Shown here: positions 1 to 18,348 of the stretch, piece by piece
How positions within the stretch are numbered: position 1 is the stretch's first letter
Layout of the letters: each line of letters opens with the position of its first letter
DNA from: Candidatus Levybacteria bacterium RIFCSPHIGHO2_01_FULL_41_15
GTDB taxonomy: Bacteria > Patescibacteriota > Microgenomatia > Levybacterales > UBA12049
Assembly (NCBI GenBank): GCA_001782165.1
Contig: MFNV01000009.1
Location: 56,123-120,122 of the forward strand
DNA: 64,000 nt
Direction: 5' to 3'
Program-made: the position numbers and the translations under genes
The notes under the pieces: generated by a model
Told to the model about the DNA's origin: nothing
The model's database searches: none
Seen by the model: the letters and a program-made list of their open reading frames with translations, nothing else

Positions 1-248
1 CCAAAGTCCAGTCCAGAAATTGCCCTGATCTTGCAGCAACTTTTCCGACAAAAGTTACCTCATCATCCTTAACCCATGATCCCCCTACAGCTGTCCCGGG
101 AACAGATGTCGGAGTCGGAGTTGGGGCAGCTTGAGCAAGGACAGAGTATGGAAGAGCTAATTTAAAGGCTATTAATAAAATTACTAGAAAAGAGAATAAT
201 TTTTTTTTGGGCAGGCCATGCCTGCCGGCGGGCAGGAATTTTTTCATA
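1..248 (-). CDS. Partial CDS (N-terminus; continues beyond window start): secreted protein with basic n-region, hydrophobic signal peptide (…LFSFLVILLIAFKLALPYSVLAQA) and PT-repeat linker
   Basis: Not in the ORF track because it is truncated. Own translation of the minus strand gives ATG at 246-248 directly after the stop (249-251) of the upstream gene, and an open frame to position 1. Confidence 0.4.
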
Positions 249-548
249 TTATTGAAAACCCGGAATATGCAAGACGTCAACCGCTATTACCCTAATAAAA
301 ACAAAACCCAAAACAGCAAGAAGAATTCCGGCTATAGAATAGTAAATATAACTCTTCCCTTTCTCAAGTTGTATGGGCTCTCCCTGAGAGGTAAGAACAA
401 GGTAACCCCCGTAAATTATAAAAAGAAGCGCTACTCCCCCTATAAGCCCGAGTCCGATTCCGTAAAATTTCTCTACAAAGGCAAACGGGTCTTTTGGAAT
501 GCAACCTAAATCAGTTTCAATTCCGTCGACTCCATTGAGACAGGCCAT
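249..548 (-). CDS. Small 2-TM membrane protein, TrbC/VirB2-like pilin family as found in CPR genomes
   Basis: 99 aa with two hydrophobic helices and a conserved '…YGGYLVLTSQGEP…' motif typical of VirB2/TrbC-like pilins. The antisense ORF 207..509 is K/N-rich junk. Confidence 0.45.
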   Translation of the reverse strand: MACLNGVDGIETDLGCIPKDPFAFVEKFYGIGLGLIGGVALLFIIYGGYLVLTSQGEPIQLEKGKSYIYYSIAGILLAVLGFVFIRVIAVDVLHIPGFQ

Positions 549-579
549 ATTCTAATTTTATGGTAGCACAAAAAAAGCG

Positions 580-1473
580 TCAAAACCAATTTCTTTTCTT
601 GCCTTCCTCTTCAAATTTTTTTAATAATTCTCTCTGGTAAGATGTTAATTTATTGGGGATCTGCACTCTTATTTTCAAGTAATGATCGCCTCTTCCTCCT
701 CCTCTGGGATGCGCAACTCCTCTGCCTTTTAGTCTCACCAAAGTCTCGGGCTGAGTTCCGGAAGGAACTTTTATTTTTACAGAGCCATCTATAGTTTCAA
801 CACTTACGGTATCTCCAAGCGCGGCTTTATAAAATGGGAGCTTAAGTTCACTTATTATATCCAAACCTTCTCTTTTAAATCGGGGGTCCTGTCTCACCTG
901 AAGTATTACATCATAATTTCCAAAACGTATTCTTGAACCATCATCAACTCCTCTGGGTATTTTTATATTTTGTGTTTTCCCGTCGATTGTTATTCTTTTT
1001 GTTGTACCGTGAACTGCCTCCATAAAATCAACCTCCAAAGAATAGACAGGTCTTCTCTGTCGCGCGGAAAATGGTGACCCGCCGCCAAAGAACTGTTCAA
1101 AAATTTCAAATGGGTCTGAAAATCCTCCAAAATCAAAATCAAATCCTTCTCCGCCAGTTGTATAGGCATAAGTAAATGGTCCATAACGTTCTGTTGTTTG
1201 CCCTTGAAATCCACCTCCAAATGGCCCAGCTCCTCCGGGAAAACCCTGTGTAAATGCGGCTGAACCAAATTGATCATAAGCTTCCCTTTTTTGAGGATCT
1301 GCTAATACCTCGTAAGCTTGATTTATCTCTTTAAATTTTTCTCCCGCTTCTTTACTTTTGTTTCTGTCAGGGTGGTACTGAAGAGCAAGCTTTCTATAAG
1401 CTTTCTTTACTTCGTCCGCAGTTGCGTTTTTTGAAACTCCTAAAATTTTATAAAAATCTTTTTCTTCTGCCAT
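580..1473 (-). CDS. dnaJ: DnaJ-family co-chaperone (J-domain, G/F-rich region, C-terminal domains; no CxxCxGxG zinc finger, so class B / CbpA-like)
   Basis: J-domain '[33 protein letters not shown]' with the HPD motif, followed by a G/F-rich linker. Position is downstream of dnaK. Confidence 0.9.
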
Positions 1474-1513
1474 AAAATCTCCCTGCCTGCCAGCAGACAG
1501 GCAGGTCTATTAT

Positions 1514-1537
1514 AATATAAAAGCGCGGTAAACGCGC
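1514..1537 (-). terminator. Putative intrinsic terminator after dnaK (GCGCG-UUUAC-CGCGC hairpin followed by UUUUAUAUU on the minus strand)
   Basis: Plus 1523-1537 'gcgcggtaaacgcgc' preceded by a T/A-rich run. On the minus strand this reads as a hairpin plus U-run 30-50 nt after the dnaK stop. Confidence 0.45.
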
Positions 1538-1570
1538 TTACTCTAGTTGCTAATTACTAGTATCTAATTA

Positions 1571-3508
1571 CTAGTTGACTACTTCGCCTTCAACAGGTTC
1601 TTCTGGTTGGTCTTCCGATTTTGATTCTGATTTTTTCTCATCTGTTTTTTCTTCACCATCTCCTGTAGTCTGTTGACTGTTGTCGGTTGGCTGTTGACTG
1701 CCTTGTGGTGAACCTGTCGAACTATACATTGCTTGCCCGACTTTCTGGAGTGAATCCGATAAATCTTTGGTCTTTGTTTCCAAATCTTCTTTAGTCCCCG
1801 TATCAAGAACTGATTTAAGGTCAGAAATTTTATCCTCAACTTCTTTTTTAAGAGTCGGGTCAACCTTATCTCCGGCATCCTTAAGCGTCTTTTCTGCTGT
1901 AAAGATCAGTGAGTCAGCAGCGTTTCTTGTCTCAACTTGTTCTTTTTTCTCTTGATCTTCCTTTGCATGTTCTTCTGCTTGTTTTGTCATTGTCTCAACT
2001 TCTTCGCGTGTCAAGCCGGTTGAGCCTGTTATCTTAATACTTTGCTCTTTACCAGTTGCCTTGTCTTGTGCCTTAACATTTAATATTCCATTTGCATCGA
2101 TATCAAAAGTAACTTCAATTTGGGGAACACCACGAGGCGCAGGAGGAATACCGTCTAGAATAAATCTTCCAAGAGATTTGTTATCTTGTACCATTGGCCT
2201 TTCTCCTTGAAGAACATTTATTTCAACCTGTGTCTGATTATCCGCCGCTGTTGAAAAAACTTGTGATTTGGAACTTGGGATAGTTGTATTCCTAGCAATT
2301 AAAGGTGTTGATACCCCTCCTAAAGTTTCTATTCCCAGAGTCAAAGGCGTAACATCCAAAAGTAAGACATCTTTCACTTCTCCTCCTAACACTCCACCTT
2401 GAATAGCTGCTCCGACTGCAACAACTTCATCCGGGTTAACCGATTTATTTGGCTCATTGTTGAAGAATTTTGTAACGGTTTCGGTTACTTTTGGCATTCT
2501 TGTCATGCCACCAACCAAAACTACTTCGTCAACGTCTGATACTTTAATCCCCGCATCTTTTAGGGCAGCTTCGACTGGTTTGACAGTTTTTTGAATTAAA
2601 CCATCAACAATCTGCTCAAGTTTTGAGCGATTTAAAGTCATTGTAAGATGCAAAGGACTTTCTTTCCCTTGAGTTATAAATGGCTGGTTGATTTGAGTTT
2701 CTTGGGCGCTTGATAATTCAATCTTTGCTTTTTCCGCTGCTTCCCTAAGTCTCTGGAGTGCCTGATGATCGCGCCTTAGATCGACTCCGTTTTCTTTTTT
2801 AAATTCTTCGGCAATATAATTTACTATCACTTGGTCAAAGTCGTCTCCACCAAGATGTGTGTCTCCATTGGTTGATTTTACCTCGTATACTCCTTCTCCA
2901 AGCTCAAGAATTGAGATGTCAAAAGTTCCACCGCCCAAATCATAAACAGCAATTGTATGAGCATTTTTCTTATCAAGGCCATAGGAAAGAGCTGCTGCTG
3001 TTGGTTCGTTAATTATTCGAAGAACTTCAAGTCCTGCAATTTCCCCTGCCTGTTTTGTTGCTTGACGCTGGCTATCATCAAAATAGGCTGGAACTGTAAT
3101 AACCGCTTGTGTGACTTTACCGCCCAAATAGGCCTCGGCATCCGATTTAATTTTCTGAAGAATTTGGGCTGAGATTTCCTGGGGAGTAAATGTTCTTCCC
3201 TCAACTTCAACAACTGCCATCCCGTCGCGACCTGCCTTCACTGCATAGGGGAGCCATTTAATATCGTACTGAACCGACTCGTCTTTAAATTTTCTGCCCA
3301 TTAGTCTTTTTATCGAAAAGATTGTTCTTTTTGGCTTTAAAACAAGCTGGCGTTTGGCAACATCTCCCACAACATGAGAAATCGGATCAACCACTGATGG
3401 GATAACATTTCGTCCCTCTCTTGAATGAATAACCTTGGGGTTTCCCCCTTCCATTACTGCAACTGCCGAATTTGTTGTACCTAAATCTATTCCTATTATT
3501 TTTCCCAT
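1571..3508 (-). CDS. dnaK: Molecular chaperone DnaK (Hsp70)
   Basis: N-terminus '[18 protein letters not shown]', with 'DLGGGTFD' and other Hsp70 signatures. 645 aa. Confidence 0.97.
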
Positions 3509-3550
3509 AAGATTCTAGTTCTTAGTAAACTAGCGACTAGTAACTAGTGG

Positions 3551-4006
3551 CTAATTGCTAGTTGCTAACTTGCCTTGTCCTACAACCACCTGTGCGGGCC
3601 TTAAAAGTTTGTCGTCTAACATATATCCCGGACTTAATTCCTCAAGGACCCTATTTTCTTCTCCCTCACCGGTTTGTACTGCCTCCATAATTGTTGGGTC
3701 AAAGTCTTTATCTTTAGTTTCGATTCTTTTGACTCCCTCCCCATCAAGAACATCAAAAATTTTCATAATACTAAGTTTTAACCCATCATCTTGCGTATGT
3801 TTTAGGGCAAGCTCTAAAGTGTCAAGCGCCGGCAAGATTCTTAGAATCAATCCTCTATTTGCCGATTTTATTAATTCTTCTTTTTCAAGCGCTACTCTTT
3901 TTTCTAAATTTTGGTAATCTGCTAACGTTCTCTTTAACTGTCCTTCAAGCTCTTTCTCTTGTGTTTCTAATTCTTTTGTCTTTTCTTGTTTTGTTTTCTT
4001 CGCCAT
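3551..4006 (-). CDS. grpE: Nucleotide exchange factor GrpE
   Basis: 151-aa coiled-coil N-terminus plus GrpE C-terminal domain. Sits between hrcA and dnaK. Confidence 0.88.
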   Translation of the reverse strand: MAKKTKQEKTKELETQEKELEGQLKRTLADYQNLEKRVALEKEELIKSANRGLILRILPALDTLELALKHTQDDGLKLSIMKIFDVLDGEGVKRIETKDKDFDPTIMEAVQTGEGEENRVLEELSPGYMLDDKLLRPAQVVVGQGKLATSN

Positions 4007-4056
4007 TTTTCATTCTCAATTGTCAATTGTAAATAGTCAATTGTCAATTTGTTAAC

Positions 4057-4794
4057 TTACCATCCTTCAGCCAATTCTTTTATTAAATTACTGAAGTATC
4101 TCACCATAGGCACCACACTGGTATAATTTAATCTTGTGGGTCCTATAACTGCAACCTCCCCTGTTGTATGTTTCGAAGTTTTATAATGACTAAATACAAA
4201 ACCATATGGCCCCGCGAGTCTTGGTCCCAATTCTTCTCCGAACAAAATATGGATATCTTCTTTACTATCGTTCTCGGGAGTCTGGAAAATATTACTAAAG
4301 TATTCCATCTCATCAATGACACTCAAAAGATTCTTTGTTATGTCAATATCAAAAAATTCCGGCATATCTAGGACATTTGAATAACCAGAGCAGAAAAAAT
4401 CTCCATCATCTGTCGTAACAATTGATAAAGCTTTGGTTTTGTCTGCAAGAGATTTTGCAACTTCCTTAAGAAGTTTTTGCTGTTGTTTTCTAAGATCCCA
4501 CACCTTTTCTTTAAGCTCCACCTCTTCAGCAATCGATATTTCTTTTTCCTTCATGAGCTGATTTACATAGAACTTCATACCAGCAGATGTTGGGGTTCTT
4601 CCAGATGAAGAATGGGGTTTCTGAAGATATCCCATTTCTGTAAGTTTAACCATTTCATTTCGGATTGTAGCCGGAGATGCGCTTATATTTCTTTTCTTCT
4701 CCAAAGTTTCAGAACCGACAGGAACTGCTGTTTCGATATACTCCTCGATTAAGTTTTTTAAAATTTCTATCTGTCTTTGAGTCAAGTTGTGCAT
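4057..4794 (-). CDS. hrcA: Heat-inducible transcription repressor HrcA (short form)
   Basis: 'MHNLTQRQIEILKNLIEEYIETAVPVGSETL' is the HrcA winged-helix N-terminus. It is the first gene of the hrcA-grpE-dnaK-dnaJ operon, with a CIRCE element upstream. Confidence 0.85.
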   Translation of the reverse strand: MHNLTQRQIEILKNLIEEYIETAVPVGSETLEKKRNISASPATIRNEMVKLTEMGYLQKPHSSSGRTPTSAGMKFYVNQLMKEKEISIAEEVELKEKVWDLRKQQQKLLKEVAKSLADKTKALSIVTTDDGDFFCSGYSNVLDMPEFFDIDITKNLLSVIDEMEYFSNIFQTPENDSKEDIHILFGEELGPRLAGPYGFVFSHYKTSKHTTGEVAVIGPTRLNYTSVVPMVRYFSNLIKELAEGW

Positions 4795-4842
4795 AATAAA
4801 AACCTAAAGCTTAAATCTTAAATGTCAAAACTCGAGATAAAA

Positions 4843-4869
4843 TTAGCACTAATATAACATGACTGCTAA
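4843..4869 (-). promoter_or_regulatory. CIRCE operator (HrcA binding site) overlapping the -10 of a TTGACA-N17-TATATT promoter for hrcA
   Basis: Plus strand TTAGCACTA-ATATAACAT-GACTGCTAA, against consensus TTAGCACTC-N9-GAGTGCTAA (one mismatch per half-site in gene orientation). The -35 TTGACA is the reverse complement of plus 4875-4880. Confidence 0.7.
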
Positions 4870-5109
4870 GCTCTGTCAAGTAGTATTTTCTGTATCTCTT
4901 TTCTTTTTTTTATTGCCACTCCGCACGCTGAATGCATGATAAGTTAAGCGAACGACTCAGGGGGATTCCTCACAAACCTGTTGAGGAGGGGGTGAAATCA
5001 CCCGAGGAGTGAGCTTAACTTTGAAAGCATGAGGCAAGGCGTGGCAAGAGTTCCTTGTTCTCTTGTCGACACAAGAGAACAAGGAAAAATTTATGCTAAA
5101 CTATTTCTT

Positions 5110-5445
5110 ATGAGAAAAATCAGAAAATTCCTGCCACTACTTTTTCTCGGCCTTTCCCTTCTTGGAATTCTAGTTTTTCTAATTATAAACTTCCCTCCAA
5201 ATTTCTATATGAATTTTGGAATATTAAAGATTAATAGTTTTTACATCTTTTTAATTTCTCTCTTTGTCTCAGGCTTTGGGATTTTTTCTTTTATCTTAAG
5301 GAATTTCCGGCGAGGATTCTTTATAGGCTTATTCTCAGTTGTCTTTTTCTATCTCCGCTACCTTAATCTCACTCATATTTTTTTCCTTATTATGCTTCTT
5401 ATAATCTTTGTTTGTCTTGAACTGTTCTTTATTCATAAAAAATAA
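5110..5445 (+). CDS. Small polytopic membrane protein (about 111 aa, roughly 4 TM), function unknown
   Basis: The track ORF 5029..5445 starts inside a GC-rich hairpin; the internal ATG at 5110 (MRKIRKFLPLLFLG…) is a more plausible start. Hydrophobic throughout. Confidence 0.35.
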   Translation: MRKIRKFLPLLFLGLSLLGILVFLIINFPPNFYMNFGILKINSFYIFLISLFVSGFGIFSFILRNFRRGFFIGLFSVVFFYLRYLNLTHIFFLIMLLIIFVCLELFFIHKK

Positions 5446-5609
5446 TCGTCTTGTCTATAATTTTACTTCCTTAAATAAAAATGTCTGTCTTTTTCATGCT
5501 TTTAGGAAAAAGACGCAGAAAACTCCGCGATGAGAAATAAAAACAGCTTTGAATAGCTTGGTTGAAATAAATCCTTGTTCGCTTTTTCCTTGTCTGATAA
5601 AATTGCTTC

Positions 5610-7064
5610 ATGGACAAACCAAATAAATTTTATATTACGAACGCGATTCCTTATGTCAATGCAAAGCCCCACATCGGACATGCCATGGAGTTTGTGCAGT
5701 CGGATACCATTGCAAGATTTCATAGGCAGATGGGAGAAGACGTTCTTCTTCTTTGCGGTTCTGATGAAAATGCTTTAAAAAATGTTCAGGCCGCAGAAGA
5801 AGAAAAGATTTCTGTGCAGGAACTGGTTGATAAAAATAGCAAGCTTTTTGAAGACCTTGCAAGAAAATTGAATGTTCAATTTGATATTTTTCAAAGAGGA
5901 AGTGACCCAAATCATCATAAATCCTCACAAAAATTGTGGGAACTTTGTTTTAAAAGCGGGGATATCTATAAAAAACAATACACTGGACTCTATTGCGTTG
6001 GTTGTGAACTATTTTATGAAAAGAATGAGCTGAATGAAAAAAGCGAATGTTTCGAACACCCTGGAAAAAAACTTGAGAAGGTTTCAGAGGAAAATTACTT
6101 TTTCAAACTTTCTAAATACCAAGCTGAAATAGGAAAGATTATTAAATCTGATCAAATACAAATTACCCCTGAAAACCGAAAAAAAGAGGTTCTTAATTTT
6201 ATAAAACAGGGCCTTAAGGACATAAGCATATCAAGATCCAACAAGAGAGCCAAAAACTGGGGAGTTTCTGTTCCAAATGATCCGACTCAAAAAATGTATG
6301 TTTGGTTTGATGCTTTAAACATTTATCAAAGCGGAACGGGATTTGCACTAGATGATAAAAAATATAAAAAATGGTGGCCTTGCGACCTTCATGTTATAGG
6401 AAAAGGAATCTTAAGATTTCATGCCATTTACTGGCCTGCTTTTCTTCTATCTGCCGGTCTTGCCCTTCCTAAGAAAATTTTTGTACATGAGTACATAACT
6501 GTAAATGGACAAAAGATGTCAAAAACCTTAGGAAATGTGATCGATCCTCTAAGTTTGATCGAAAAGTATGGCACCGATCCCCTACGTTATTATTTCTTGC
6601 GTCACATATCGCCTTTTGTAGACGGTGATTTTTCGGAAGACAAATTTAAAAAAGTTTATAATTCCGATTTGGCAAACGGGCTTGGAAATCTTATCTCAAG
6701 AGTTTCAAAACTTTGCGAAAATTCTAATTATATTCAGATGGGGTCTGCCTTACGAATTTCGGAGCACTTAATACAAATTGAGGAATACTCAAAGGCAATG
6801 CTCGAGTTTCGTTTTAATGACGCTTTATCTTTTGTTTTTAGAAAAATCGCAGATTTAGATAAATTTATTAACAATGAAAGGCCGTGGGATTTGCTTAAAA
6901 ATGAGGACAGTAGATTAAAATCAATACTTGCTCATTCAGTCGATCAGATTCAGGAAATCGCAGCTCTTTTAGAACCGTTTCTTTCTGAAACCGCCAAAAA
7001 AATCGAAAACCAATTCCAAGGACCAGAAATAGTTTCTCAAAAGCCACTATTTCCGAGAATCTAA
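5610..7064 (+). CDS. metG: Methionyl-tRNA synthetase (class I aaRS, short form)
   Basis: 'PHIGHAME' (HIGH motif), 'KMSKTLGN' (KMSKS motif) and the MetRS anticodon-binding region. Confidence 0.92.
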   Translation: MDKPNKFYITNAIPYVNAKPHIGHAMEFVQSDTIARFHRQMGEDVLLLCGSDENALKNVQAAEEEKISVQELVDKNSKLFEDLARKLNVQFDIFQRGSDPNHHKSSQKLWELCFKSGDIYKKQYTGLYCVGCELFYEKNELNEKSECFEHPGKKLEKVSEENYFFKLSKYQAEIGKIIKSDQIQITPENRKKEVLNFIKQGLKDISISRSNKRAKNWGVSVPNDPTQKMYVWFDALNIYQSGTGFALDDKKYKKWWPCDLHVIGKGILRFHAIYWPAFLLSAGLALPKKIFVHEYITVNGQKMSKTLGNVIDPLSLIEKYGTDPLRYYFLRHISPFVDGDFSEDKFKKVYNSDLANGLGNLISRVSKLCENSNYIQMGSALRISEHLIQIEEYSKAMLEFRFNDALSFVFRKIADLDKFINNERPWDLLKNEDSRLKSILAHSVDQIQEIAALLEPFLSETAKKIENQFQGPEIVSQKPLFPRI

Positions 7065-7100
7065 AGTTTGAATTCTGAATTTTAAATTCTAAATTTTTCT

Positions 7101-7901
7101 ATGGTTGACGTTCATTGTCATTTAAATTTCCATTCTTTTGAAAAAGACTACGATGAAGTTATAAAAAGGGCTTTTAATAAGGGGATTAAAAAAATTATAA
7201 ATGTCGGGACAAAGATCGATTCAAGTCAAAAAGCAGTCGAGCTTGCAGAAAAATATAAAAATTTATACGCGATTATAGGAGTTCATCCTCATCATGCGGA
7301 TAAACTTGAGAAAGATTGGATCGCAAAATTAGAAAAACTTTGTAAAAATTCCAAGGTTGTTGGAATCGGAGAATGCGGAATGGATTTTTATAGATATAAG
7401 TCAAACGGCATTATTGATGTCAAACTTCAAAAAGATGTTTTTGTAAAACAAATTGAGCTTTCCTTAAAACTTAAACTTCCCCTTCAAATCCACAACAGAC
7501 ATGCAGGAAAAGAAATTCTTGATATTTTAAGCCACTATAAAAGTGACTTATTAAACCCGCCGGGAATGTTTCACTGCATGTCGGGAAACCTGGACTTTTT
7601 AAAAAGAGTTCTTGGTCTTGGATTCTACATTGGTTTTGACGGAAATATTACTTATAAAGGTATTGCGCCCGGCGAAGATACGCTACTTTCCGATCTAATT
7701 AAGGCTACCCCCTTCACTAGAATCGTGACTGAAACAGATAGTCCGTTCCTTGCGCCTGTGCCTTTCAGAGGTAGAAGAAATACACCCTCCTATGTTATAA
7801 TCGTTGGGCAATTCATAGCTAAAATTAAAGGGATTTCTTTTGAAAAACTAGAAGAGCAAACGTCCCTCAATGCTGACCGGATTTTTAATTTTAAATCTTA
7901 A
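7101..7901 (+). CDS. tatD: TatD-family metal-dependent DNase/hydrolase
   Basis: 'MVDVHCHLNF' with other His and Asp residues at the positions expected for TatD metal ligands (e.g. GVHPHHAD, HCMSG; an inference, not a database match). 266 aa. Confidence 0.88.
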   Translation: MVDVHCHLNFHSFEKDYDEVIKRAFNKGIKKIINVGTKIDSSQKAVELAEKYKNLYAIIGVHPHHADKLEKDWIAKLEKLCKNSKVVGIGECGMDFYRYKSNGIIDVKLQKDVFVKQIELSLKLKLPLQIHNRHAGKEILDILSHYKSDLLNPPGMFHCMSGNLDFLKRVLGLGFYIGFDGNITYKGIAPGEDTLLSDLIKATPFTRIVTETDSPFLAPVPFRGRRNTPSYVIIVGQFIAKIKGISFEKLEEQTSLNADRIFNFKS

Positions 7902-7910
7902 AACTTATTT

Positions 7911-9404
7911 ATGACAAACTTTTTCAATAAAATTTTTATAAGATATCCTATAAAGACAAGGAGATTGCTTGAGCTTATTCCTGGACTTTTCTCCTGGACA
8001 TTAGTAACATTTCCAGTTTGGGGTTCATTAACTGTTCCCTACGCTGTTGCTTATTTTATTCTTTTTTTTGACATATATTGGCTTTATAAATCTTTCTCTG
8101 TCGCAGTCACATCTTTTATTTCCTCAAATAAAATAAAAGAGTCCGAGCGAGAAAACTGGCTTGAGAAAGCATCTAGTCTTTCGGATTTCAATAAATTAAA
8201 CCACATAGTTATTATTCCAAATTACAGGGAGGGGGTAGAGAAATTAAGGACAACGATTCAAAGTATTGCCATGCAAACGTTTCCAACAAAAAAAATATAT
8301 ATAGTCCTGGCAATGGAAAAAAGAGAGAAGGATGTAGGGAAAAAAGCAGAGGATTTAATAAACGAATTCAGTGGTACATTTGGAGAAATATTTGCAACTT
8401 ATCATCCGGATATAAAAGGGGAAGTAAAAGGGAAATCATCCAACCAGGCTTATGCAGGCAAGATTATCTATAAACTACTTATCGGCTCAGGTAGACTTGA
8501 TATTGATTTTACCACGATATCGTCTGTGGATTCAGATTCAATCTTTGATAAACAATATTTTTCATATCTTACCTACAGCTTTATAGAAGATGAGAAAAGG
8601 TACAACACTTTCTGGCAGTCTGCAAATGTTAATTATAATAATTTTTGGAAGATACCTGCGCCCACCCGCGTCATCGCTTTTTTTGGAAGTATTTGGAGAA
8701 TGGCAGTTCTTATTCAAAAGGATAAACTTGTTTCAAATTCTACTTACTCACTATCGCTTAAGCTTCTTAAGAGAATCGGCTTCTGGGATACAGATGTAAT
8801 TCCTGAAGACTATAGAATTTTTTTCAAAGCATTTTACAGACTAAAAGGTGATGCATGGGTAAAACCCATATTCCTTAAAACCTCGATGGATGCTCCGCTT
8901 TCCAAAACATTTTGGAAAAGTATCAAAAGCAAATACGACCAGGAAAGAAGATGGTCGTGGGGAGTTTCCGATGACCCACTTTTTATCAAATGGTGGCTTA
9001 CGGTTCCCGATGTTCCATTTGTTAGAAAAACAATTATGCTCTACAATGTTCTCATAGATCATTTTCTCTGGCCTGTAAACTGGTTTATAATTACAATTGC
9101 AGCAAATATAATTACATTTTTAAATCCTGTATTCTCAAGGACTACTCTTGGGTATCGTCTCCCAACCATCGCAGGAGCAATTTTGACGACATGTTTGTTT
9201 GCTCTTTTAGTTTTGGTAATTATTGATTTCAGAACAAGACCAAAAAGCCACTCTTTAGGAAGGGTCCGAGAATTTCTTTTTCCTCTTGAATTTATACTTC
9301 TTCCTATAGTTGGATTCTTTTTAAATGCTCTTCCTGCTCTTATATCCCATACACAGCTTATGCTTGGAAAAAAAATTGAATATAAAGTAACAGAGAAGAT
9401 ATGA
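7911..9404 (+). CDS. Processive family-2 glycosyltransferase (membrane-integrated, cellulose-synthase-like)
   Basis: GT2 core 'VIIPNYREG…', a DxD-like 'VDSDS' and the QxxRW motif 'DQERRWSWG'. Multiple N- and C-terminal TM helices. Confidence 0.72.
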   Translation: MTNFFNKIFIRYPIKTRRLLELIPGLFSWTLVTFPVWGSLTVPYAVAYFILFFDIYWLYKSFSVAVTSFISSNKIKESERENWLEKASSLSDFNKLNHIVIIPNYREGVEKLRTTIQSIAMQTFPTKKIYIVLAMEKREKDVGKKAEDLINEFSGTFGEIFATYHPDIKGEVKGKSSNQAYAGKIIYKLLIGSGRLDIDFTTISSVDSDSIFDKQYFSYLTYSFIEDEKRYNTFWQSANVNYNNFWKIPAPTRVIAFFGSIWRMAVLIQKDKLVSNSTYSLSLKLLKRIGFWDTDVIPEDYRIFFKAFYRLKGDAWVKPIFLKTSMDAPLSKTFWKSIKSKYDQERRWSWGVSDDPLFIKWWLTVPDVPFVRKTIMLYNVLIDHFLWPVNWFIITIAANIITFLNPVFSRTTLGYRLPTIAGAILTTCLFALLVLVIIDFRTRPKSHSLGRVREFLFPLEFILLPIVGFFLNALPALISHTQLMLGKKIEYKVTEKI

Positions 9405-10870
9405 AGTTTCTGTCAAAAGCTGAAAAGAGCAAAGATTTTTGGTTTATTTTAATAACCTCAATCTTCTTTTTTATCCTGAGATTCCCCTCCCTTTTTGAGC
9501 CATACTGGTACGGAGACGAGGGAATATATCATGTCTTAGGACTTGGGATAAGACATGGGAGAGTTCTCTACGCAGGTATCTGGGATAATAAACCTCCTCT
9601 TCTTTATTTGATCTATGGTCTTTTCTCTTCGGATCAATTTTACATAAGGCTTTTCTCCCTTATCTTCGGAATTTTATCGACAGTTGTGTTTTTCTTTCTT
9701 GCCAAAAAACTTTTCTACAATGGGAAAGAACACAGCAAGGCTGTCTATTGGTCTTGTGGAGTTTTTGCTCTTCTTTTTGCTCTCCCGCTTCTTGAAGGAA
9801 ATATTGCAAACGCAGAAAATTTTATGCTTCTCCCTATACTTCTTGCCGCGCTTATTATCTTAAAAGATAAAATTAAATCCTCGACTCTTTTTCTGTCAGG
9901 AGTTTTAATTGGAATTGCCTTCCTCTTTAAAATAGTAGGAATCTTTGATTTTGCTGCATTTTTTGCATTCCTTTTTATCCTAAGTCTCCCAAGAAAAATA
10001 GCAAATTTTAAAAAGGTTGTTATAAATTCCGCAGTCAGCCTCTTTCCTTTTATCTTAGGGTTTATCTCCCTTTTTGTTTTAACTTCCCTGTTCTTTCTCG
10101 GAGACGCATTTAAATTTTTCCTGCAAGCCGTATTCGTTCAAAATGTCGGATATGTCGGGTATGGCAATAAATTTCTCATTCCACAAGGACTTTTAATTTT
10201 CAAATTGGTCATTCTCTCCGTCTTCCTGTTTTATCTCTTTATAAAAAGGGGGAATTTTACAAAAACAGCGCTTTTTATCCTTATCTGGTTTTCTTTTTCT
10301 TTATTCAACGCTCTTTTCTCCCAAAGACCCTACACCCACTATCTTTTGGTGCTTATCCCAAGTCTTTCTCTTCTGGTTGGCCTCCTGATTTTTGAGAAAA
10401 AAAATCAAACCATTCCTCTGTCTCTGTTTGTCTTATCACTTTTCTTTATTATTACAAACTTCAATCTTTATGGAAAAACTCCTTTTTACTATCAAAACTT
10501 TTTGTCCTTTATTTTGGGCAGAAAAAGTGTAAGTTCATATAGAGAATTCTTCGACAGAAAAACGTCAAACGATTATGAAATCGCACAGTATGTTAATGCA
10601 AAAACCAGAAAAAATGACCAGATTTTTATTTGGGGCAATAATGCCCAAGTTTACAAACTTACTGATAGACTTCCTCCCGGCAGATATACTGTGGCATATC
10701 ATATAACAGGCTTTAATGATGGGTACAAAAATACCGAAGGTGCTTTAATGAAAGTAAAACCAAGATTCATAATTATTATGGACGGGCAACCGGTTTTTCC
10801 ATTTTCTCTATCTTCATATCAACCAGCGATGAAAATTGGCAGAGGATCTATCTATGAGAGGATTTTTTGA
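9401..10870 (+). CDS. GT-C fold membrane glycosyltransferase (ArnT/PMT-like)
   Basis: About 12 TM segments, with a 'YWYGDEGIY' acidic motif in the first extracytoplasmic loop as in GT-C enzymes. Confidence 0.55.
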   Translation: MKFLSKAEKSKDFWFILITSIFFFILRFPSLFEPYWYGDEGIYHVLGLGIRHGRVLYAGIWDNKPPLLYLIYGLFSSDQFYIRLFSLIFGILSTVVFFFLAKKLFYNGKEHSKAVYWSCGVFALLFALPLLEGNIANAENFMLLPILLAALIILKDKIKSSTLFLSGVLIGIAFLFKIVGIFDFAAFFAFLFILSLPRKIANFKKVVINSAVSLFPFILGFISLFVLTSLFFLGDAFKFFLQAVFVQNVGYVGYGNKFLIPQGLLIFKLVILSVFLFYLFIKRGNFTKTALFILIWFSFSLFNALFSQRPYTHYLLVLIPSLSLLVGLLIFEKKNQTIPLSLFVLSLFFIITNFNLYGKTPFYYQNFLSFILGRKSVSSYREFFDRKTSNDYEIAQYVNAKTRKNDQIFIWGNNAQVYKLTDRLPPGRYTVAYHITGFNDGYKNTEGALMKVKPRFIIIMDGQPVFPFSLSSYQPAMKIGRGSIYERIF

Positions 10871-11207
10871 TGAAGCGGGGAAAGATAAAATTATAACAGG
10901 AGGCTTTTTAATAACCTTCTTTTTGATTTTACTTAGTTTTTCCTATATATTGATTAATTTAAGCTCAATCCCTTCCTATATTCCCCTTTTTAATCAGCTC
11001 CCTTGGGGAGAAGAAAGACTCGGAACGACATTTATGATTTTTTTGCCGACAGGCGGAGTATTATTAATTTCTTTCGTAAATCTTGTTGTTTCTGTCTTTA
11101 TATATTCTAAATCTCAAATGATTGCACGGATGCTTGCAATAACGAGTCTCCTAATCGCTTTTCTTTCTTTTATTTTTATTGTGCGTACAATTAATCTTAT
11201 TACCTAA
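10836..11207 (+). CDS. Small membrane protein, unknown function
   Basis: Hydrophobic 123-aa ORF inside the glycosylation cluster. Overlaps its neighbours by a few bp. Confidence 0.35.
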   Translation: MAEDLSMRGFFDEAGKDKIITGGFLITFFLILLSFSYILINLSSIPSYIPLFNQLPWGEERLGTTFMIFLPTGGVLLISFVNLVVSVFIYSKSQMIARMLAITSLLIAFLSFIFIVRTINLIT

Positions 11208-12274
11208 TGTTTACAAATATAATATTGTTGCCGCTTTTGATTACTTTTATTTCTGTAATATTTTTGACTCCCCTGTCTATAAGCTTTATAAAAAAATTGG
11301 GGCTTATAGACGATCCACGAAAACACAAACATCCTGCAGTAATTCACAAAAAACCCATTCCAAGAGGCGGAGGAATACCTCTTTACCTTGGTGCTTTAAT
11401 TGGGGCTCTTCTTTTTCTCCCAGCTACAAAAGAAGTTGTTTTACTTTTTACAGCAGGGCTGATTGCTCTTTCTGTGGGAATTCTTGACGACAAATTTGAT
11501 CTTTCGCCTTACTTTCGTTTTATTTTTAATATTATTTCGGCTTTAATTGTTGTGGGGGCCGGGATTTCAATACCCTTCGTAACAAATCCATTGGGAGGGA
11601 TTTTTTATCTTGACTCCCTTAGGTTTTCTTTGGATTTTTTAAATATGACCGTTGCTCTTTCAGATGTTATTGCTCTTATCTGGTTAATTTGGGTTATGAA
11701 TATGCTTAACTGGAGTAAGGGCGTGGATGGACAAATGCCAGGAATTATAGGAATATCGGCAGCGGTTATTGGAATTTTAAGCCTTAGATTTCCTGTTGTA
11801 GATCAGACAAATCTTATAACTGCAAAACTTTCTTTTATTTTGTCAGGAGCCGCTTTTGGTTTTCTTATTTTTAATTTTTATCCTGCCAAAATTTTTCCGG
11901 GATACGGAGCGACATCTATTTATCTCATGCTTGGCGCTGTTTCAATTCTTTCAAGCGCCAAACTTGCAACTGCCATTTTGGTAATGGGTGTCCCCATGAT
12001 TGATGGGGCTGTAACTATAATAAGAAGAATTTTAAGCAGGAAGTCTCCTTTTTGGCATGACAGGAAACATCTCCACCATCTTCTTCTGGATGCCGGATTT
12101 GGACAAAGAAGAATTGCGTTGTTTTATTGGATTATTTCTGCTATATTGGGGTCCCTATCGCTTCTTTTATCAAGCAGAGGAAAACTTTTTGCAGTTGTGA
12201 TGGTAACAATTATAGTGGGGGGGATTTTGTTTTTTGTACATTTTGCTTTAAAAAAAGATGAGAATTCTCTATAA
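11207..12274 (+). CDS. MraY/WecA-family polyprenyl-phosphate N-acetylhexosamine-1-phosphate transferase
   Basis: 'GILDDKFDL' (DDxxD) and 'RKHLHHLLLD' (HHH-like) motifs. 10-11 TM helices. Confidence 0.78.
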   Translation: MFTNIILLPLLITFISVIFLTPLSISFIKKLGLIDDPRKHKHPAVIHKKPIPRGGGIPLYLGALIGALLFLPATKEVVLLFTAGLIALSVGILDDKFDLSPYFRFIFNIISALIVVGAGISIPFVTNPLGGIFYLDSLRFSLDFLNMTVALSDVIALIWLIWVMNMLNWSKGVDGQMPGIIGISAAVIGILSLRFPVVDQTNLITAKLSFILSGAAFGFLIFNFYPAKIFPGYGATSIYLMLGAVSILSSAKLATAILVMGVPMIDGAVTIIRRILSRKSPFWHDRKHLHHLLLDAGFGQRRIALFYWIISAILGSLSLLLSSRGKLFAVVMVTIIVGGILFFVHFALKKDENSL

Positions 12275-13199
12275 CATTCTAAGACTTATAAGACCAAGAC
12301 AGTGGATCAAAAATCTTGCCATTTTTGCAGCCATAACCTTCTCCGGAGAATTATTTAATATCCCTGTTTTGACTAATGTTGCTCTCGGATTTCTCGTTCT
12401 TTGTGCTGTTTCCTCTGCAACATATATAGTTAACGATTTCTTTGACATCAAAAGCGACAGGCTCCACCCCTTCAAAAAAGGAAGGCCTCTTGCCCATAAA
12501 GATGTGCCCGTGTCTTTGGCTCTTCTTCTTGCCGGACTTCTTATTTTTGCGTCTTTCTATCTTGCTCTTAAGGTAACAACTGCTTTTCTTATCGTCATTA
12601 TAATTTACTTAATTATTCAAATCTTTTATTCTGTTCTTTTAAAATCGATTGCGGTTTTGGATATTCTTGTAATTGCCTCAGGCTACATACTAAGAGTATA
12701 TGCAGGAGAATTTGCATCAGGATTTCATATCTCTGTTTGGCTTCTTCTCACCGTTATATCGCTTTCTCTGTTTCTGGCTGTTGGCAAAAGAAGATCTGAG
12801 CTTACCTTGGTTTCTCAAGTAAAAGATGTCAATATCGCAAATATTCGAAAATCTCTTTCTCATTATTCGGAGCGTCTTCTTGATGTTTATGCCACAGTTT
12901 TTGCCACCGCGACTTTTGTTTTTTATTCACTTTTCACATTTTTAGAGAATCCGAAAGGATTTCAATTGGGATTAAACATTCTTATTCCGGATTTTCTTCC
13001 AACTTTTTTTTACCGGAAATGGCTAATGATAACAATTATTCCTGTCATCTATGGTCTCATGCGATATATTCAAGATATATATGAAAAACATGAAGGAGAA
13101 AGCCCCGAAAAAGTTCTTTTATCAGATAAGCCTCTTTTGGCAACAGTAATTTTCTGGGTGATTCTTGTTATCGGAATTATTTATTTTGTGAATCCCTAA
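12258..13199 (+). CDS. UbiA-family prenyltransferase (decaprenyl-phosphate phosphoribosyltransferase-like)
   Basis: 'NDFFDIKSDRLHP' is the UbiA NDxxDxxxD motif. Polytopic, and adjacent to the GT-C and WecA genes. Confidence 0.72.
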   Translation: MRILYNILRLIRPRQWIKNLAIFAAITFSGELFNIPVLTNVALGFLVLCAVSSATYIVNDFFDIKSDRLHPFKKGRPLAHKDVPVSLALLLAGLLIFASFYLALKVTTAFLIVIIIYLIIQIFYSVLLKSIAVLDILVIASGYILRVYAGEFASGFHISVWLLLTVISLSLFLAVGKRRSELTLVSQVKDVNIANIRKSLSHYSERLLDVYATVFATATFVFYSLFTFLENPKGFQLGLNILIPDFLPTFFYRKWLMITIIPVIYGLMRYIQDIYEKHEGESPEKVLLSDKPLLATVIFWVILVIGIIYFVNP

Positions 13200-13220
13200 A
13201 ATCAAATTTTTATAGGAACT

Positions 13221-13877
13221 ATGAAGCTACTTTTAACATCATCAGGGATTACGAATAAATCCATAAAAATAGCTTTATTGAAACTCCTTAAAAAACCTTT
13301 TAAAAAATCGAGTTTAACTTTTATTCCGACAGCCGCCAATGTTGAGACGGGAGATAAATCATGGTTAGTTGAAGATATGTATAACTTCAAGAAACTAGGC
13401 TTTGCATCTTTTGATGTGATAGATATTTCCGCAGTGCCAAAGAGCCTATGGCTACCTAGTTTTAAGAATGCGGATATTCTTGTTTTTGGAGGAGGTAATG
13501 TCAAATATTTACTTGAATGGATAAGAAAATCCGGTTTAATAAAATTGCTACCTAAGCTTCTCAAGAATAAAGTTTACGTCGGTATCAGCGCAGGGAGTAT
13601 GGCTGCCGCAAAGACTGTTTCTTTATCAAGCGCGGGGATATTATATTACGAGAAGAAAGGAAAACCAGAAAATATAGAAGGGCTGAGTTTGGTCAACTTT
13701 GAAATAAGACCTCACCTTAACTCCAAATGGTTTCCGAAAGTAAGATTAGATTATCTTGAAAAACTTACGAAAAATAGACCAGTCCAATTCTATGCCATAG
13801 ATGATGATACAGCAGTAAAAGTTGATGGAGATAAAATTGAAATAATCTCAGAAGGGTCTTGGAAAAGATTTAATTAG
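13221..13877 (+). CDS. Peptidase S51 (dipeptidase E / cyanophycinase-like)
   Basis: 'LLTSSGI…', 'ILVFGGGNVKYLL' and 'GISAGSM' (catalytic Ser in GxSAG). Confidence 0.72.
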   Translation: MKLLLTSSGITNKSIKIALLKLLKKPFKKSSLTFIPTAANVETGDKSWLVEDMYNFKKLGFASFDVIDISAVPKSLWLPSFKNADILVFGGGNVKYLLEWIRKSGLIKLLPKLLKNKVYVGISAGSMAAAKTVSLSSAGILYYEKKGKPENIEGLSLVNFEIRPHLNSKWFPKVRLDYLEKLTKNRPVQFYAIDDDTAVKVDGDKIEIISEGSWKRFN

Positions 13878-13882
13878 CATGC

Positions 13883-14704
13883 TTATTCTTTTTCTGCGTA
13901 TTGGGAGCTGACCCAGCCGGTTTTTCCACTTTCTAATTTTATTTTAAACCAACCCTCCCTCTCTTCAATAAGCTCAAAGGTTTGTCTGGGATTGACCCTG
14001 TCTATTTCCGCAGATAACAAAGAGCTATCTTCTCTCACTCTTAAGAATCCCGTAGGCGTTTCAAGAATTAGAATTTTCTGGACAGAAGGGGTTGGAGAAG
14101 CTGAAATGATAGGAAGAGACGATCCGCTTAAGTTTGGACTAACTCCTAGAGAAACGACTGCGTGAAGAGAAAAACCTTTAGAGGTTTTTATCCTTAAAAT
14201 CTTTTCTAAGTAACCATCTTTAATAAGTTTTAGTTCATGGTCGGATTCTGTAATATTTTTAAGAAGAAGCGGAGACTGACCGGCAAGATTGCTGTCAAGA
14301 ATTACATCTGCCTTATCAGGAAATGTAATAACCATAAGATCTGCTTGCCTTTTGCCAGTTTCCTCTAAGGTTATGAGAGAAGAGGAAGCACCATCTCCAA
14401 ATGTTCTATCAAGGACTGTAAGAACACCATTTTCTATCTTAACTTTTTCCTCAAAGGGTTTAAGCTCCCCCTCTTTCGGCACAAGTCTTATGCTATACTC
14501 TCCCATAGAAAACATCTCTTTGTTTTTACATCTGCATAAAGGAGTTTCTCCTATTAGCCTTCCGTTTAGGTAAACTTTGCTTTTTGGAGTTGAGGTTACC
14601 TGCAAAGCACCTTTACCTCCCCGTGGGTTAAGAACAAAGACCAGGCCGGCAAATAGAACAACAGCACCTATGAAAGGGAGAATATAAAGAATTAATTTCC
14701 TCAT
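13883..14704 (-). CDS. Membrane-anchored PEGA-domain protein with C-terminal bacterial SH3-like domain
   Basis: N-terminal TM, 'VTSTPKSKVYLNGRLIGETP' PEGA-like motif, and a C-terminal '…GWFKIKLESGKTGWVSSQY' SH3b-like segment. Confidence 0.5.
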   Translation of the reverse strand: MRKLILYILPFIGAVVLFAGLVFVLNPRGGKGALQVTSTPKSKVYLNGRLIGETPLCRCKNKEMFSMGEYSIRLVPKEGELKPFEEKVKIENGVLTVLDRTFGDGASSSLITLEETGKRQADLMVITFPDKADVILDSNLAGQSPLLLKNITESDHELKLIKDGYLEKILRIKTSKGFSLHAVVSLGVSPNLSGSSLPIISASPTPSVQKILILETPTGFLRVREDSSLLSAEIDRVNPRQTFELIEEREGWFKIKLESGKTGWVSSQYAEKE

Positions 14705-14795
14705 AGGAGATAAAAATCATTATAGCAGAACAAGGGTTTTTCGAGGGACTATTTTATTTAAACTAATCGCTAATTGCTAGTTGCTAATGGCTAAC

Positions 14796-16439
<1,644 letters not shown>

Positions 16440-16469
16440 TTAAATCAATTTTAAATTTTAAATTCCTTG

Positions 16470-16769
16470 CTATTCTAAAATAGCAAGGATGTCTTTCTGC
16501 TCGACAATTGTCCATTCCTCATTACCAACCTTAACATCAGATCCGCCCCATTTTTTATACATAACTTTTTGTCCAACTTTAACCGTCATTGGGATAAGTT
16601 TTCTCTCATCGTCTCTTGCTCCTTCGCCGACAGCCATGATCTTGCCTGTTTGGGGTTTTTCCTTTGCGGTATCTGGAAGAATTATACCGCTTGCGGTTTT
16701 ATCCTCTGTCTCAAGCGGTTTTATAAGAACATTGTCAAAAAGCGGTTTTATTTTTATTTTACTTGCCAT
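16470..16769 (-). CDS. groES: Co-chaperonin GroES
   Basis: 99 aa, 'IKPLFDNVLIKPLE…'. Lies upstream of groEL. Confidence 0.95.
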   Translation of the reverse strand: MASKIKIKPLFDNVLIKPLETEDKTASGIILPDTAKEKPQTGKIMAVGEGARDDERKLIPMTVKVGQKVMYKKWGGSDVKVGNEEWTIVEQKDILAILE

Positions 16770-16835
16770 AACTAAAAATTACTGACCAAAAAAACCTGCC
16801 CGCCATCGGCATTTGCCGAAGGCATTGCAGGCGGG

Positions 16836-16862
16836 TATCACTTGATAAAAGTGATTGCTAAA
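16836..16862 (-). promoter_or_regulatory. Degenerate CIRCE-like operator in the groESL leader
   Basis: Minus strand TTAGCAATC-ACTTTTATC-AAGTGATA, placed immediately downstream of a TTGACA-N17-TATAAAT promoter. Confidence 0.5.
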
Positions 16863-16891
16863 TTTATACAACAAAATGCTTTTTGTGTCAA
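16862..16891 (-). promoter_or_regulatory. groESL sigma-70-type promoter (TTGACA-17-TATAAAT)
   Basis: The reverse complement of plus 16886-16891 is TTGACA, followed by a 17-nt spacer, and the reverse complement of plus 16862-16868 is TATAAAT. Confidence 0.55.
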
Positions 16892-16912
16892 TAACCTATA
16901 GTATAGCACCCT

Positions 16913-17941
16913 TCAGTCGCTCTTCAAAAATTGTAATTCCTTTTTTATTTTTTGGGTCAGTCTATAACTATCTGCGTGATTTAGAAAGCCTAAATAAGCT
17001 GCTATGCTTTGATTAAGCGAGTACTGTAAAATTTTGCCACTCCTGAAATCTTCAATCTTATTTTCTATCTTTTTAAATATTCTATTTCTGGTTTTTGTAC
17101 AAGGCAGAATATGATGTGGTAAAACTATGTATCCTAAGAAATCAATTCCCTGGTTATATTTTCTAATTATTATTTTCTTTGAATGTAAGTCAAGGTTAAG
17201 ATTGTCTCTTAGAAACATTGTAATTATACTAATATACTTGGACAATTTTTTTAAATCTGGATCTAGAATTATAAAATCATCTGCATAACGAATATAATAT
17301 TTAACCTTTAATTTTTGTTTCACAAATTGATCTAGCTCATTAAGATATATATTTGCAAAAAGCTGACTTGTGAGATTTCCTATGGGAATTCCTCTTTCCT
17401 TTGAAAAACTCTTTAGAATATTTTCTAAAAGCCAAGTGAGATTCCCATCTTTTATTTTTCTTTTTATAATCGAAAGAAGAATTGCGTGATCAACGCTTTC
17501 AAAAAACTTTTTAATGTCAAGTTTTAAGACAAAGCAATCTTGTTTGTAATTCTTACTTACTTTCCTTATTAATTTGGAGAGTCTTTTAACAGCTCTGTGA
17601 GTTCCTTTATTAAGTCTGCAGGAATAAGAATCGTAGATAAAAATCTGATCAAAAATAGGTTCAAGGATAGATACTATAGCATGGTGAACTATTCTATCGC
17701 GCACTTGCGCTTTATGGATATGGCGGAATTTAGGATCGTAAATGTTAAAAGCCGTATATTTACCATGTCTGTAATTCCCGCTTTTTAATTTTTTATGAAG
17801 TCCAAAAAGATTATCCTCAAGATTTATTTCAAAAAATCGTACATCTTTCTTTCTTCTTTTGTCTTTCTTAAATTCATCCCATGCTTGAAATAAATTTTCT
17901 ATTGATATAATCTTTAGATAGAGGGTATGAAAAACTTTCAC
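16913..17941 (-). CDS. DGR reverse transcriptase
   Basis: RT motifs 'RDRIVHHAI', 'FVLKLDIKKFFESVDH', 'GIPIGNLTSQLFANIYLNELD' (IGxxxSQ, DGR-specific rather than QGxxxSP) and 'YIRYADDFIIL' (YADD). 342 aa. Confidence 0.85.
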   Translation of the reverse strand: MKVFHTLYLKIISIENLFQAWDEFKKDKRRKKDVRFFEINLEDNLFGLHKKLKSGNYRHGKYTAFNIYDPKFRHIHKAQVRDRIVHHAIVSILEPIFDQIFIYDSYSCRLNKGTHRAVKRLSKLIRKVSKNYKQDCFVLKLDIKKFFESVDHAILLSIIKRKIKDGNLTWLLENILKSFSKERGIPIGNLTSQLFANIYLNELDQFVKQKLKVKYYIRYADDFIILDPDLKKLSKYISIITMFLRDNLNLDLHSKKIIIRKYNQGIDFLGYIVLPHHILPCTKTRNRIFKKIENKIEDFRSGKILQYSLNQSIAAYLGFLNHADSYRLTQKIKKELQFLKSD

Positions 17942-17953
17942 GGCACAAAATTA

Positions 17954-17988
17954 GGACAGGACAGGACAGGACAGGACAGGACAGGACA
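17954..17988. repeat. (GGACA)x7 pentanucleotide microsatellite in the divergent RT/avd promoter region
   Basis: Seven perfect tandem copies, 13-47 nt upstream of the RT start codon. Confidence 0.9.
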
Positions 17989-18041
17989 GTAGTGAGTTTA
18001 ACATACCAATTTTCCAGAAACTTTACGATTTCTACAAATTA

Positions 18042-18332: not shown

Positions 18333-18348
18333 ATAAGGAGATGCAAGG

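Follow-up and report, generated by a model that had tools for sequence, protein, structure and literature searches.

The 64-kb window (W) analysed here comes from a groundwater Candidatus Levybacteria, a member of the Candidate Phyla Radiation (CPR; Patescibacteria), and holds two chaperone operons on its minus strand. The hrcA-grpE-dnaK-dnaJ operon (580..4794) consists of hrcA (4057-4794), grpE (3551-4006), dnaK (1571-3508) and a dnaJ-like gene (580-1473), while the groES-groEL operon (14796..16769) consists of groES (16470-16769) and groEL (14796-16436). Open reading frames (ORFs) were called by our own greedy procedure, and the names grpE, dnaK and groEL that an earlier note had given to three of these genes hold. 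That note had also placed a 19-mer, GCTAATTGCTAGTTGCTAA, in two exact copies at 3550-3568 and 14769-14787, and an 11-mer, CTAGTTGCTAA, at 1543-1553, and all three positions are correct. What it overlooked is that each of the three sites is a head-to-tail tandem array of a 7-nucleotide (nt) unit with the sense form YTAGCAA or YAAYTAG. Each array starts at, or slightly within, the stop codon of its gene (grpE, dnaK or groEL), and with 5-8 units apiece all three are heptanucleotide simple sequence repeats (SSRs), which are defined by at least three copies.

The array that spans the grpE tail and the grpE-dnaK spacer (3514..3569, minus strand) has 8 units, which read in the sense direction GTTAGCA ACTAGCA ATTAGCC ACTAGTT ACTAGTC GCTAGTT TACTAAG AACTAGA, followed by ATCTT and the dnaK ATG. 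Sense-type units fill its first half and inverted-type units its second, giving a weak dyad. The 19-mer copy at 3550-3568 overlaps the grpE stop codon (3551-3553) and the last five grpE codons, and the array encodes a non-conserved GrpE tail, KLATSN-stop, that lies past the conserved ...RPAQVxVG end of the family. The second array covers the last dnaK codons and the dnaK 3' untranslated region (UTR; 1543..1577, minus strand). Its 5 sense units are CAACTAG TAATTAG ATACTAG TAATTAG CAACTAG, in which AAC-TAG forms the terminal Asn codon and stop, and a terminator-like hairpin lies downstream. The 11-mer is located here, 18-28 nt past the dnaK stop (1571-1573). The third array, also of 5 units, lies directly past the groEL stop (14763..14795, minus strand) and reads TAA-G TTAGCCA TTAGCAA CTAGCAA TTAGCGA TTAG-TTTAAAT, with the second 19-mer copy 9-27 nt past the stop codon (14796-14798). 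Tandem Repeats Finder (TRF) assigns period 7 to the grpE and groEL arrays, and the dnaK array emerges from direct reading of the sequence together with a motif scan.

The shared 19-mer and 11-mer are far beyond chance. Allowing up to 3 mismatches, the 19-mer has 4 matches against 0.01 expected, a number reached in 0 of 100 shuffles, and the motif CTARTTRCTAR with up to 1 mismatch has 17 against 8.4 expected, again reached in 0 of 100 shuffles. Thirteen of these 17 matches fall within the three arrays. Since each site is an array of one unit family, the 19-mer identity is an identity between arrays rather than between copies of a unique element. The motif CTAGTT-N7-AACTAG, which the earlier note had reported upstream of dnaK, is present at 3515-3533, and its N7 spacing follows from the 7-nt period and the palindromic CTAG. 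The tetramer CTAG itself is under-represented across the window (65 observed, about 217 expected from base composition), and the three arrays account for 9 of the 65, which makes them local exceptions to CTAG avoidance.

Arrays of this period recur throughout the window. TRF reports about 20 further period-7 arrays with other units, among them ATTGTCA between hrcA and grpE, AATTTTA between groES and groEL, and also TCTAAAT, ATATTTG, AAATTTC, AATTTGA and TTTTGAC. The longest lies in the ruvA-ruvB spacer (61050-61149), which consists almost entirely of about 14 AATTTTA units. Period 7 accounted for 5 strict arrays in a lag-match scan, where every other period from 4 to 12 had 0-1. Taking the window together with ten 20.8-kb syntenic loci from relatives, each with a dnaK operon and groESL, a period-7 array occurs in 31 of 160 spacers, where other periods reach 2-5 and shuffled sequence 0.3. 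The over-representation of period 7, the several unit families and the mostly non-coding location are the features of heptanucleotide SSRs. A smaller number of arrays fall within coding sequence, in RuvC, triose-phosphate isomerase, a FemAB-like protein and the DnaK C-terminal tail (62114-62152, 34031-34068, 36345-36381, 36661-36695 and 1670-1700). The RuvC array (AGTCAAA, four copies) encodes ESQKSKVKSQN and that of triose-phosphate isomerase encodes ISNIKYQISHI; their presence in genuine coding sequence argues for a strong mutational drive towards 7-nt duplication. Among arrays past stop codons in the window and in L127-L216 (L-numbers denote loci of related genomes compared with W), an AATT core is found in 42 of 68 arrays and in 18 of 38 distinct units, where shuffling the units gives 7.7 +/- 2.2. 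TTAGCAA, which can be read as AATTAGC, belongs to this AATT-NNN superfamily.

Comparison with relatives drew on the ten syntenic loci and on a set of 80 hrcA-grpE-dnaK-dnaJ loci whose GrpE is 47-69% identical to that of W. Synteny of the hrcA-grpE-dnaK-dnaJ operon is kept across the related loci recovered, and that of groES-groEL is seen in L207-L216. Heptamer arrays occupy the chaperone intercistronic spacers throughout the clade, and the unit is not conserved. Past dnaK, units vary at about 84-90% DnaK identity: L127, L132 and L134 carry CAACTAG/CAATTAG as W does, and other loci carry TAAGAAT (L129/L208), CATTTAA (L130), ATTCAAA (L138), ATTTCTA (L150, L163), TTTAAAA (L168), TTCAGAA (L169) or CGTCTAG (L180). 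Between grpE and dnaK, the W type is retained in L137, L129/L208, L132, L210, L159 and L172/L175, many other relatives have different units, and about one third have a spacer of only 0-7 nt. The W-type array past groEL has an orthologue in L207 only. Across the 80 and the ten relatives, therefore, unit and copy number change at the same locus. The earlier note had proposed conservation in close relatives as a check on its element; an array is kept at the same spacers in some of them, and many others have different units there or no spacer at all.

The units also occur far outside this lineage. A scan of 185,579 species genomes for TAGCAAYTAGCAAYTAG returned at least 120 loci, in Acidobacteriaceae (about 60% GC), Cyanobacteria, Planctomycetota, Bacteroidota and Clostridia, and another Patescibacterium has a (YTAGCAA)n array past uvrA. 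Among the loci listed, 5 of 120 have a chaperone-like match within 8 kb of the array, at best a slight enrichment, and one of the five, L071, looks from the sequence beside the array like an isc-type locus rather than a heat-shock one, in which case its dnaK-like gene would be hscA. The earlier note had raised the possibility that the motif is restricted to heat-shock genes and had regarded scatter over dozens of unrelated loci as the mark of a generic repeat. Such scatter is what the scan found, in unrelated contexts and in many phyla, so (YTAGCAA)n is a generic repeat type. AT-rich TTAGCAA-type arrays are common in the approximately 60% GC genomes of Acidobacteriaceae. Two acidobacterial loci lie near heat-shock genes: about 20 AGCAATT units directly past a dnaJ-like gene (L023:6140-6267), and sense and inverted TTAGCAA arrays flanking an hrcA promoter region (L066:1750-2050).

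Taken together, these observations tip the balance, by a modest degree, towards the view that the 19-mer and the 11-mer are pieces of slippage-generated heptamer SSR arrays lying in transcribed spacers, with one unit family spreading locally and with a role that is at most cis-acting and independent of sequence. The arrays would be born and turned over by replication slippage, for which a 7-nt bias has been proposed earlier (Mrazek 2007, as cited in PMC4679880 and PMC4692102). The 19-21-mer identities within a genome would then reflect a unit family spreading between the two chaperone operons, which are co-oriented neighbours separated by 11-13 kb in the ten syntenic loci. Any function would probably act in cis on the mRNA and be largely sequence-independent, with the arrays filling spacers or 3'-UTRs. 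A sense array with an inverted one behind it may form a long imperfect hairpin before dnaK or groEL, and structures of this sort could determine how a given cistron is processed, how stable it is or how well it is translated. A heat-shock-specific function of the arrays is possible but unproven.

Several observations weigh against this interpretation, most of them concerning the distribution of one unit family, defined as TAGC at period 7 or YTAG three times at period 7. In the window and the ten syntenic relatives, such TAGC/YTAG arrays occupy 14 of 79 spacers adjacent to a chaperone gene and 0 of 92 other spacers (Fisher 1e-5), in a test that, like all the enrichment statistics here, counts related genomes as independent, with no phylogenetic correction. 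One further match lies deep in coding sequence. Among strict arrays, this type makes up 7 of 26 inside chaperone transcription units and 0 of 30 outside them (p ~0.003), including 0 of 17 in their immediate neighbourhood (p ~0.02 against 7 of 26). Chaperone spacers are also richer in heptamer arrays as a whole (26/76 vs 5/84), in counts that draw largely on identical orthologous spacers, counted repeatedly. Exact 19-21-mers are common to distant spacers within W, L207 and L180. The grpE-dnaK spacers of W and L137 are 92% identical, when the grpE coding sequences are 68% and the dnaK 5' ends 80% identical, and in alignment the block GCTAGTTWACTAA..ACTAGAATATT upstream of the dnaK ATG recurs in several relatives. 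Six metagenome assemblies of the W strain were compared for copy-number variation and are all identical, with no polymorphism; in L005, a longer grpE-dnaK gap reflects a differing gene call over an identical spacer sequence. Together, these observations are more easily reconciled with some selection on sequence than with pure neutrality. The confinement, the common 19-21-mers and the W/L137 spacer also preserve part of the earlier note's proposal of a shared 3'/intercistronic element on heat-shock transcripts: the sequences do sit in spacers and 3'-UTRs of chaperone mRNAs, and they form a heptamer repeat class instead of a discrete conserved element.

Some of these observations are the basis for the foremost alternative, a possible though unlikely one, in which the TAG(C) heptads are a sequence-specific cis element on chaperone mRNAs or DNA, a multivalent platform for an RNase, an RNA-binding protein or a second regulator that would co-ordinate both operons post-transcriptionally. 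Beyond the shared 19-21-mers and the W/L137 spacer, it is supported by the restriction of this unit family, over 11 genomes, to the transcription units of chaperones and by its reappearance at different spacers of the two operons. In L207, the TAGC family is found between hrcA and grpE and past groEL, with a common 21-mer; in L180, a 21-mer is common to the hrcA-grpE and dnaK-dnaJ spacers; in L212, the family occupies the hrcA-grpE and grpE-dnaK spacers; in L214, it is found between hrcA and grpE alone, the groEL 3' array being built of another unit; and in L209/L211, a TAGCGT sub-type lies between groES and groEL. This last variation also counts against the alternative, as two sub-families (TAGCAA and TAGCGT) would demand differing specificities. 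Many relatives have other units or no spacer, L213 and L216 lack any TAGC/YTAG-type array, L185 has a TAGC array upstream of metRS, and TTAGCAA-type arrays are generic in other phyla. The proximity of dnaK and groESL keeps local spread a live alternative to common selection, and the statistics treat kin as independent.

Predicted folding also counts against such an element, as the arrays are not consistently structured as RNA. The grpE-dnaK spacer of W has a predicted fold of -15.6 kcal/mol (z = -0.56), no better than shuffled sequence, and no RNA structure is predicted for the groEL 3' array (z = +1.1). The strong structures past dnaK are terminator-like and GC-rich hairpins outside the array. 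In relatives whose spacers before dnaK or groEL hold a sense and then an inverted array, long imperfect hairpins are predicted, with z = -2.3 to -4.0. A common hairpin was sought with RNAalifold on eight TAGC-type grpE-dnaK spacers and rejected, as the 7-pair consensus came without useful covariation and the repeat alignment was ambiguous. Rfam gave no match at E <=1 in positions 1-20000 and one tRNA only in the whole window. The arrays do not resemble an RNA thermometer (ROSE, fourU) or a known RNA family, their hairpins ending 10-20 nt before the AUG.

An improbable alternative holds that the arrays act as a translation leader without a Shine-Dalgarno sequence, or as a ribosome standby site, with those before dnaK and groEL recruiting ribosomes, possibly via S1 or a Csp-like protein. 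TAGC-type dnaK leaders indeed lack a GGAGG-like motif and end in a recurrent ACTAGAATATT-ATG block, an analogous proposal has been made for TAACTGA repeats in Beggiatoaceae, where Shine-Dalgarno sequences are scarce (PMC4679880), and work in Nostoc offers experimental hints. At two of the three sites, however, the array lies 3' of a gene, and what comes next is a terminator-like hairpin or a promoter rather than a start codon. At the grpE-dnaK junction, moreover, many relatives have an ordinary AAAGGA Shine-Dalgarno sequence or are directly coupled (0-7 nt). Comparably improbable is a more ambitious form of the sequence-specific element, a lineage-specific Levybacteria 'heptad code' in which TAG(C) arrays confined to dnaK and groESL transcripts hop between spacers, are kept homogeneous within each genome, and are read by an RNA- or DNA-binding factor or an RNase that would thereby co-ordinate chaperone stoichiometry at the post-transcriptional level. 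If true, this would be a regulon marker made of simple-sequence repeats.

It is very unlikely that the arrays are auxiliary HrcA sites, in which TTAGCAA(C/T)T units mimic the left arm, TTAGCA(A/C/G)TC, of the controlling inverted repeat of chaperone expression (CIRCE) and recruit HrcA inside the operons. The idea has some appeal, since it would account for the restriction to chaperone operons, and TTAGCA is common to array and CIRCE, with TTAGCAAT fitting the groES operator arm at 8 of 9 positions. Yet a spacing census yielded 30 instances of [CT]TAGC-N17-GCTA[AG] over the data set, every one of them belonging to the true hrcA operator and none to an array. No array has CIRCE geometry of the TTAGCACTC-N9-GAGTGCTAA type, the only real CIRCE of that kind lying at 4843-4869. 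The 3' arrays have no inverted partner, and genomes with TAGCGT-type units keep TTAGCA in their CIRCE, so that the two do not co-vary.

A three-frame stop insulator seems highly implausible. As 7 equals 1 modulo 3, a TAG or TAA in each unit would stop all frames past an ORF, and YTAG units do place TAG in all three frames. Of the 68 arrays past stop codons, however, 51 have a sense stop and 54 an antisense stop, and this lack of sense bias indicates that stops in the units merely reflect AT-richness; moreover, the common units AATTCAA and TTCAGAA have no sense stop.

The HspR operator that the earlier note had suggested before dnaK can be dismissed with near certainty: its N7 spacing, the one point of likeness to an HspR-associated inverted repeat (HAIR), derives from the 7-nt period, CTTGAGT-N7-ACTCAAG has 0 matches at <=3 mismatches where chance predicts 2.85, Pfam and NCBIfam searches of the window ORFs scanned gave no MerR/HspR-family match, and CTAGTT-N7-AACTAG is intercistronic rather than at a promoter, in an operon that already has HrcA and CIRCE, with promoter and CIRCE upstream of hrcA.

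Other elements surround the arrays in both operons. The hrcA promoter, TTGACA-17-TATATT (4851-4879), is overlapped by the true CIRCE operator (4843..4869; sense TTAGCAGTC-N9-TAGTGCTAA), which is kept upstream of hrcA in 30 distinct relatives. Between CIRCE and the hrcA start codon, the 5'-UTR holds an array of sense TTTAAGA-type units (4803..4825, minus strand). The hrcA-grpE spacer holds another, with the sense unit CAATTGA in 5.4 copies (4012..4049, minus strand). Read over 4019-4055, these CAATTGA units spell TTGACA repeatedly, and the promoter-like matches TTAACA-18-TACAAT and TTGACA-17-GACAAT lie just upstream of grpE; judging from these motifs, the array could double as an internal promoter. 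In L137 (147-250), the corresponding heptamer array is split by a GC-rich palindromic insert of about 60 nt (CCCCGGCCTCGACAAGCGCCCGC...GGGGCGGGCAGG), which may be a small mobile palindrome. A further array, with the sense unit AATTTAA, lies between groES and groEL (16444..16465, minus strand).

Past the dnaK array, on the minus strand, come the terminator-like hairpin AAGCGCG-TTTAC-CGCGCTT with a U-run (1521..1539), then TATAAT, and then a GC-rich hairpin, CCTGCCTG..CAGGCAGG (1482..1505), which abuts or overlaps the dnaJ Shine-Dalgarno sequence (GGGAG) and is present in W, L130 and L132. The layout of the dnaK-dnaJ spacer is kept across the clade, running from a variable heptamer array through a GAGCGCG-N5-CGCGCTTTT hairpin, TATAAT and a Shine-Dalgarno sequence to the dnaJ ATG. 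This order of motifs suggests a terminator or attenuator followed by an internal dnaJ promoter. The gene for ClpB, three genes downstream of dnaJ in the window, has no TAGC/YTAG-type array.

Upstream of groES, a CIRCE variant, TTAGCAATCACTT-N5-AAGTGAT (16837..16862, minus strand), follows the form TTAGCA(A/G)TCACTT-N5-AAGTGAT, whose right arm departs from the canonical GAGTGCTAA. It is kept in those syntenic relatives whose fetched sequence extends that far. A GC-rich hairpin similar in type to the one before dnaJ precedes groES in W (about 16795-16835) and in L212. Adjoining groES is a module resembling a diversity-generating retroelement (16913-18332), comprising a reverse-transcriptase ORF (16913-17941, minus strand) that matches a group-II-intron reverse transcriptase/maturase model at 6.6e-44, below the cutoff, and a divergent bAvd-like ORF (18042-18332, plus strand; PF22296, 5e-19), with a perfect (AGGAC)x7.4 repeat between them at 17953-17989. 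Syntenic relatives that extend past groES have other genes there, several of them a PKD/cohesin gene.

The heat-shock-operator reading of this locus does not hold up, and what takes its place is a streamlined CPR genome riddled with 7-nt tandem arrays, in operon spacers and in enzyme loops. Heptamer repeats have recurred, unexplained, in bacterial genomes since 1990, and a small, conserved, syntenic locus that can be compared across dozens of relatives could serve to tell apart their origin by mutation and their use in cis-regulation. Should the chaperone-specific family prove to have a function, heat-shock control in bacteria not yet culturable would gain a post-transcriptional level.

The arrays can be set beside several known systems. 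Stabiliser hairpins at intercistronic or 3' positions include repetitive extragenic palindromic (REP)-type elements and are also involved in mRNA processing of the Bacillus subtilis dnaK operon. Like the W arrays, such hairpins stand between cistrons or before terminators, in operons of chaperones and of other genes, and the dyad arrays of relatives are likewise predicted to fold into long imperfect hairpins. REPs, however, are conserved palindromes in many copies, whereas the W arrays are not conserved in sequence, the W hairpin does not outdo shuffled sequence, and the 3' arrays have no predicted structure. The omega-repressor heptads of plasmid pSM19035 are operators made of heptad repeats. 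Such operators resemble the W arrays in their contiguous 7-bp units, direct and inverted, and in them unit number tunes regulation; they sit in promoters and have a known binding protein, unlike the W arrays, which lie inside transcription units and have none known. The TTTTGAT heptads of ctxAB, bound by ToxR and H-NS, are a further case (bioRxiv 10.1101/2021.05.14.444153).

Closer likenesses are found in the literature on heptamer repeats (PMC4679880; PMC4692102; bioRxiv 10.1101/2022.06.06.494920). The GGGAATC/GGGGAYT repeats of Xanthomonas and Nostoc (Rehm 2015, PMC4692102) are, like the W arrays, intergenic, kept between the same genes in related species, extensively variable in length and sequence, and in some cases arranged as inverted pairs; they are G-rich and form G-quadruplexes, whereas the W arrays are AT-rich and without G-quadruplex potential. 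The TAACTGA direct repeats of marine Beggiatoaceae (MacGregor 2015, PMC4679880) share with W short arrays of 2-6 units in transcribed spacers and a patchy phylogenetic distribution. They often abut start codons that have no Shine-Dalgarno sequence, and a post-transcriptional role has been proposed for them (PMC4679880). In Beggiatoaceae, one unit dominates genome-wide with no functional pattern among the downstream genes, while W has many units, its arrays are as likely to start at a stop codon as to precede a start codon, and one family tracks the chaperone operons.

The nearest counterparts are the short tandemly repeated repetitive (STRR) heptamers of heterocystous cyanobacteria and the 7-nt long simple sequence repeats (LSSRs) of many bacteria (Mazel 1990; Mrazek 2007, as cited in PMC4692102 and PMC4679880). 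As in W, these are head-to-tail 7-nt units in a few to tens of copies, mostly intergenic, with several unit families per genome, an over-representation of period 7, and fast change of length and sequence between relatives. (TTAGCAA)n itself is found in Microseira, Stigonema, Hormoscilla and other cyanobacteria. W differs in that its host has a reduced CPR genome, its units are AT-rich and centred on AATT, and its arrays are concentrated in the spacers of two chaperone operons, to which one family is confined. The W arrays belong with the heptanucleotide SSRs that include STRRs, 7-nt LSSRs and the TAACTGA and GGGAATC repeats, here in a CPR genome.

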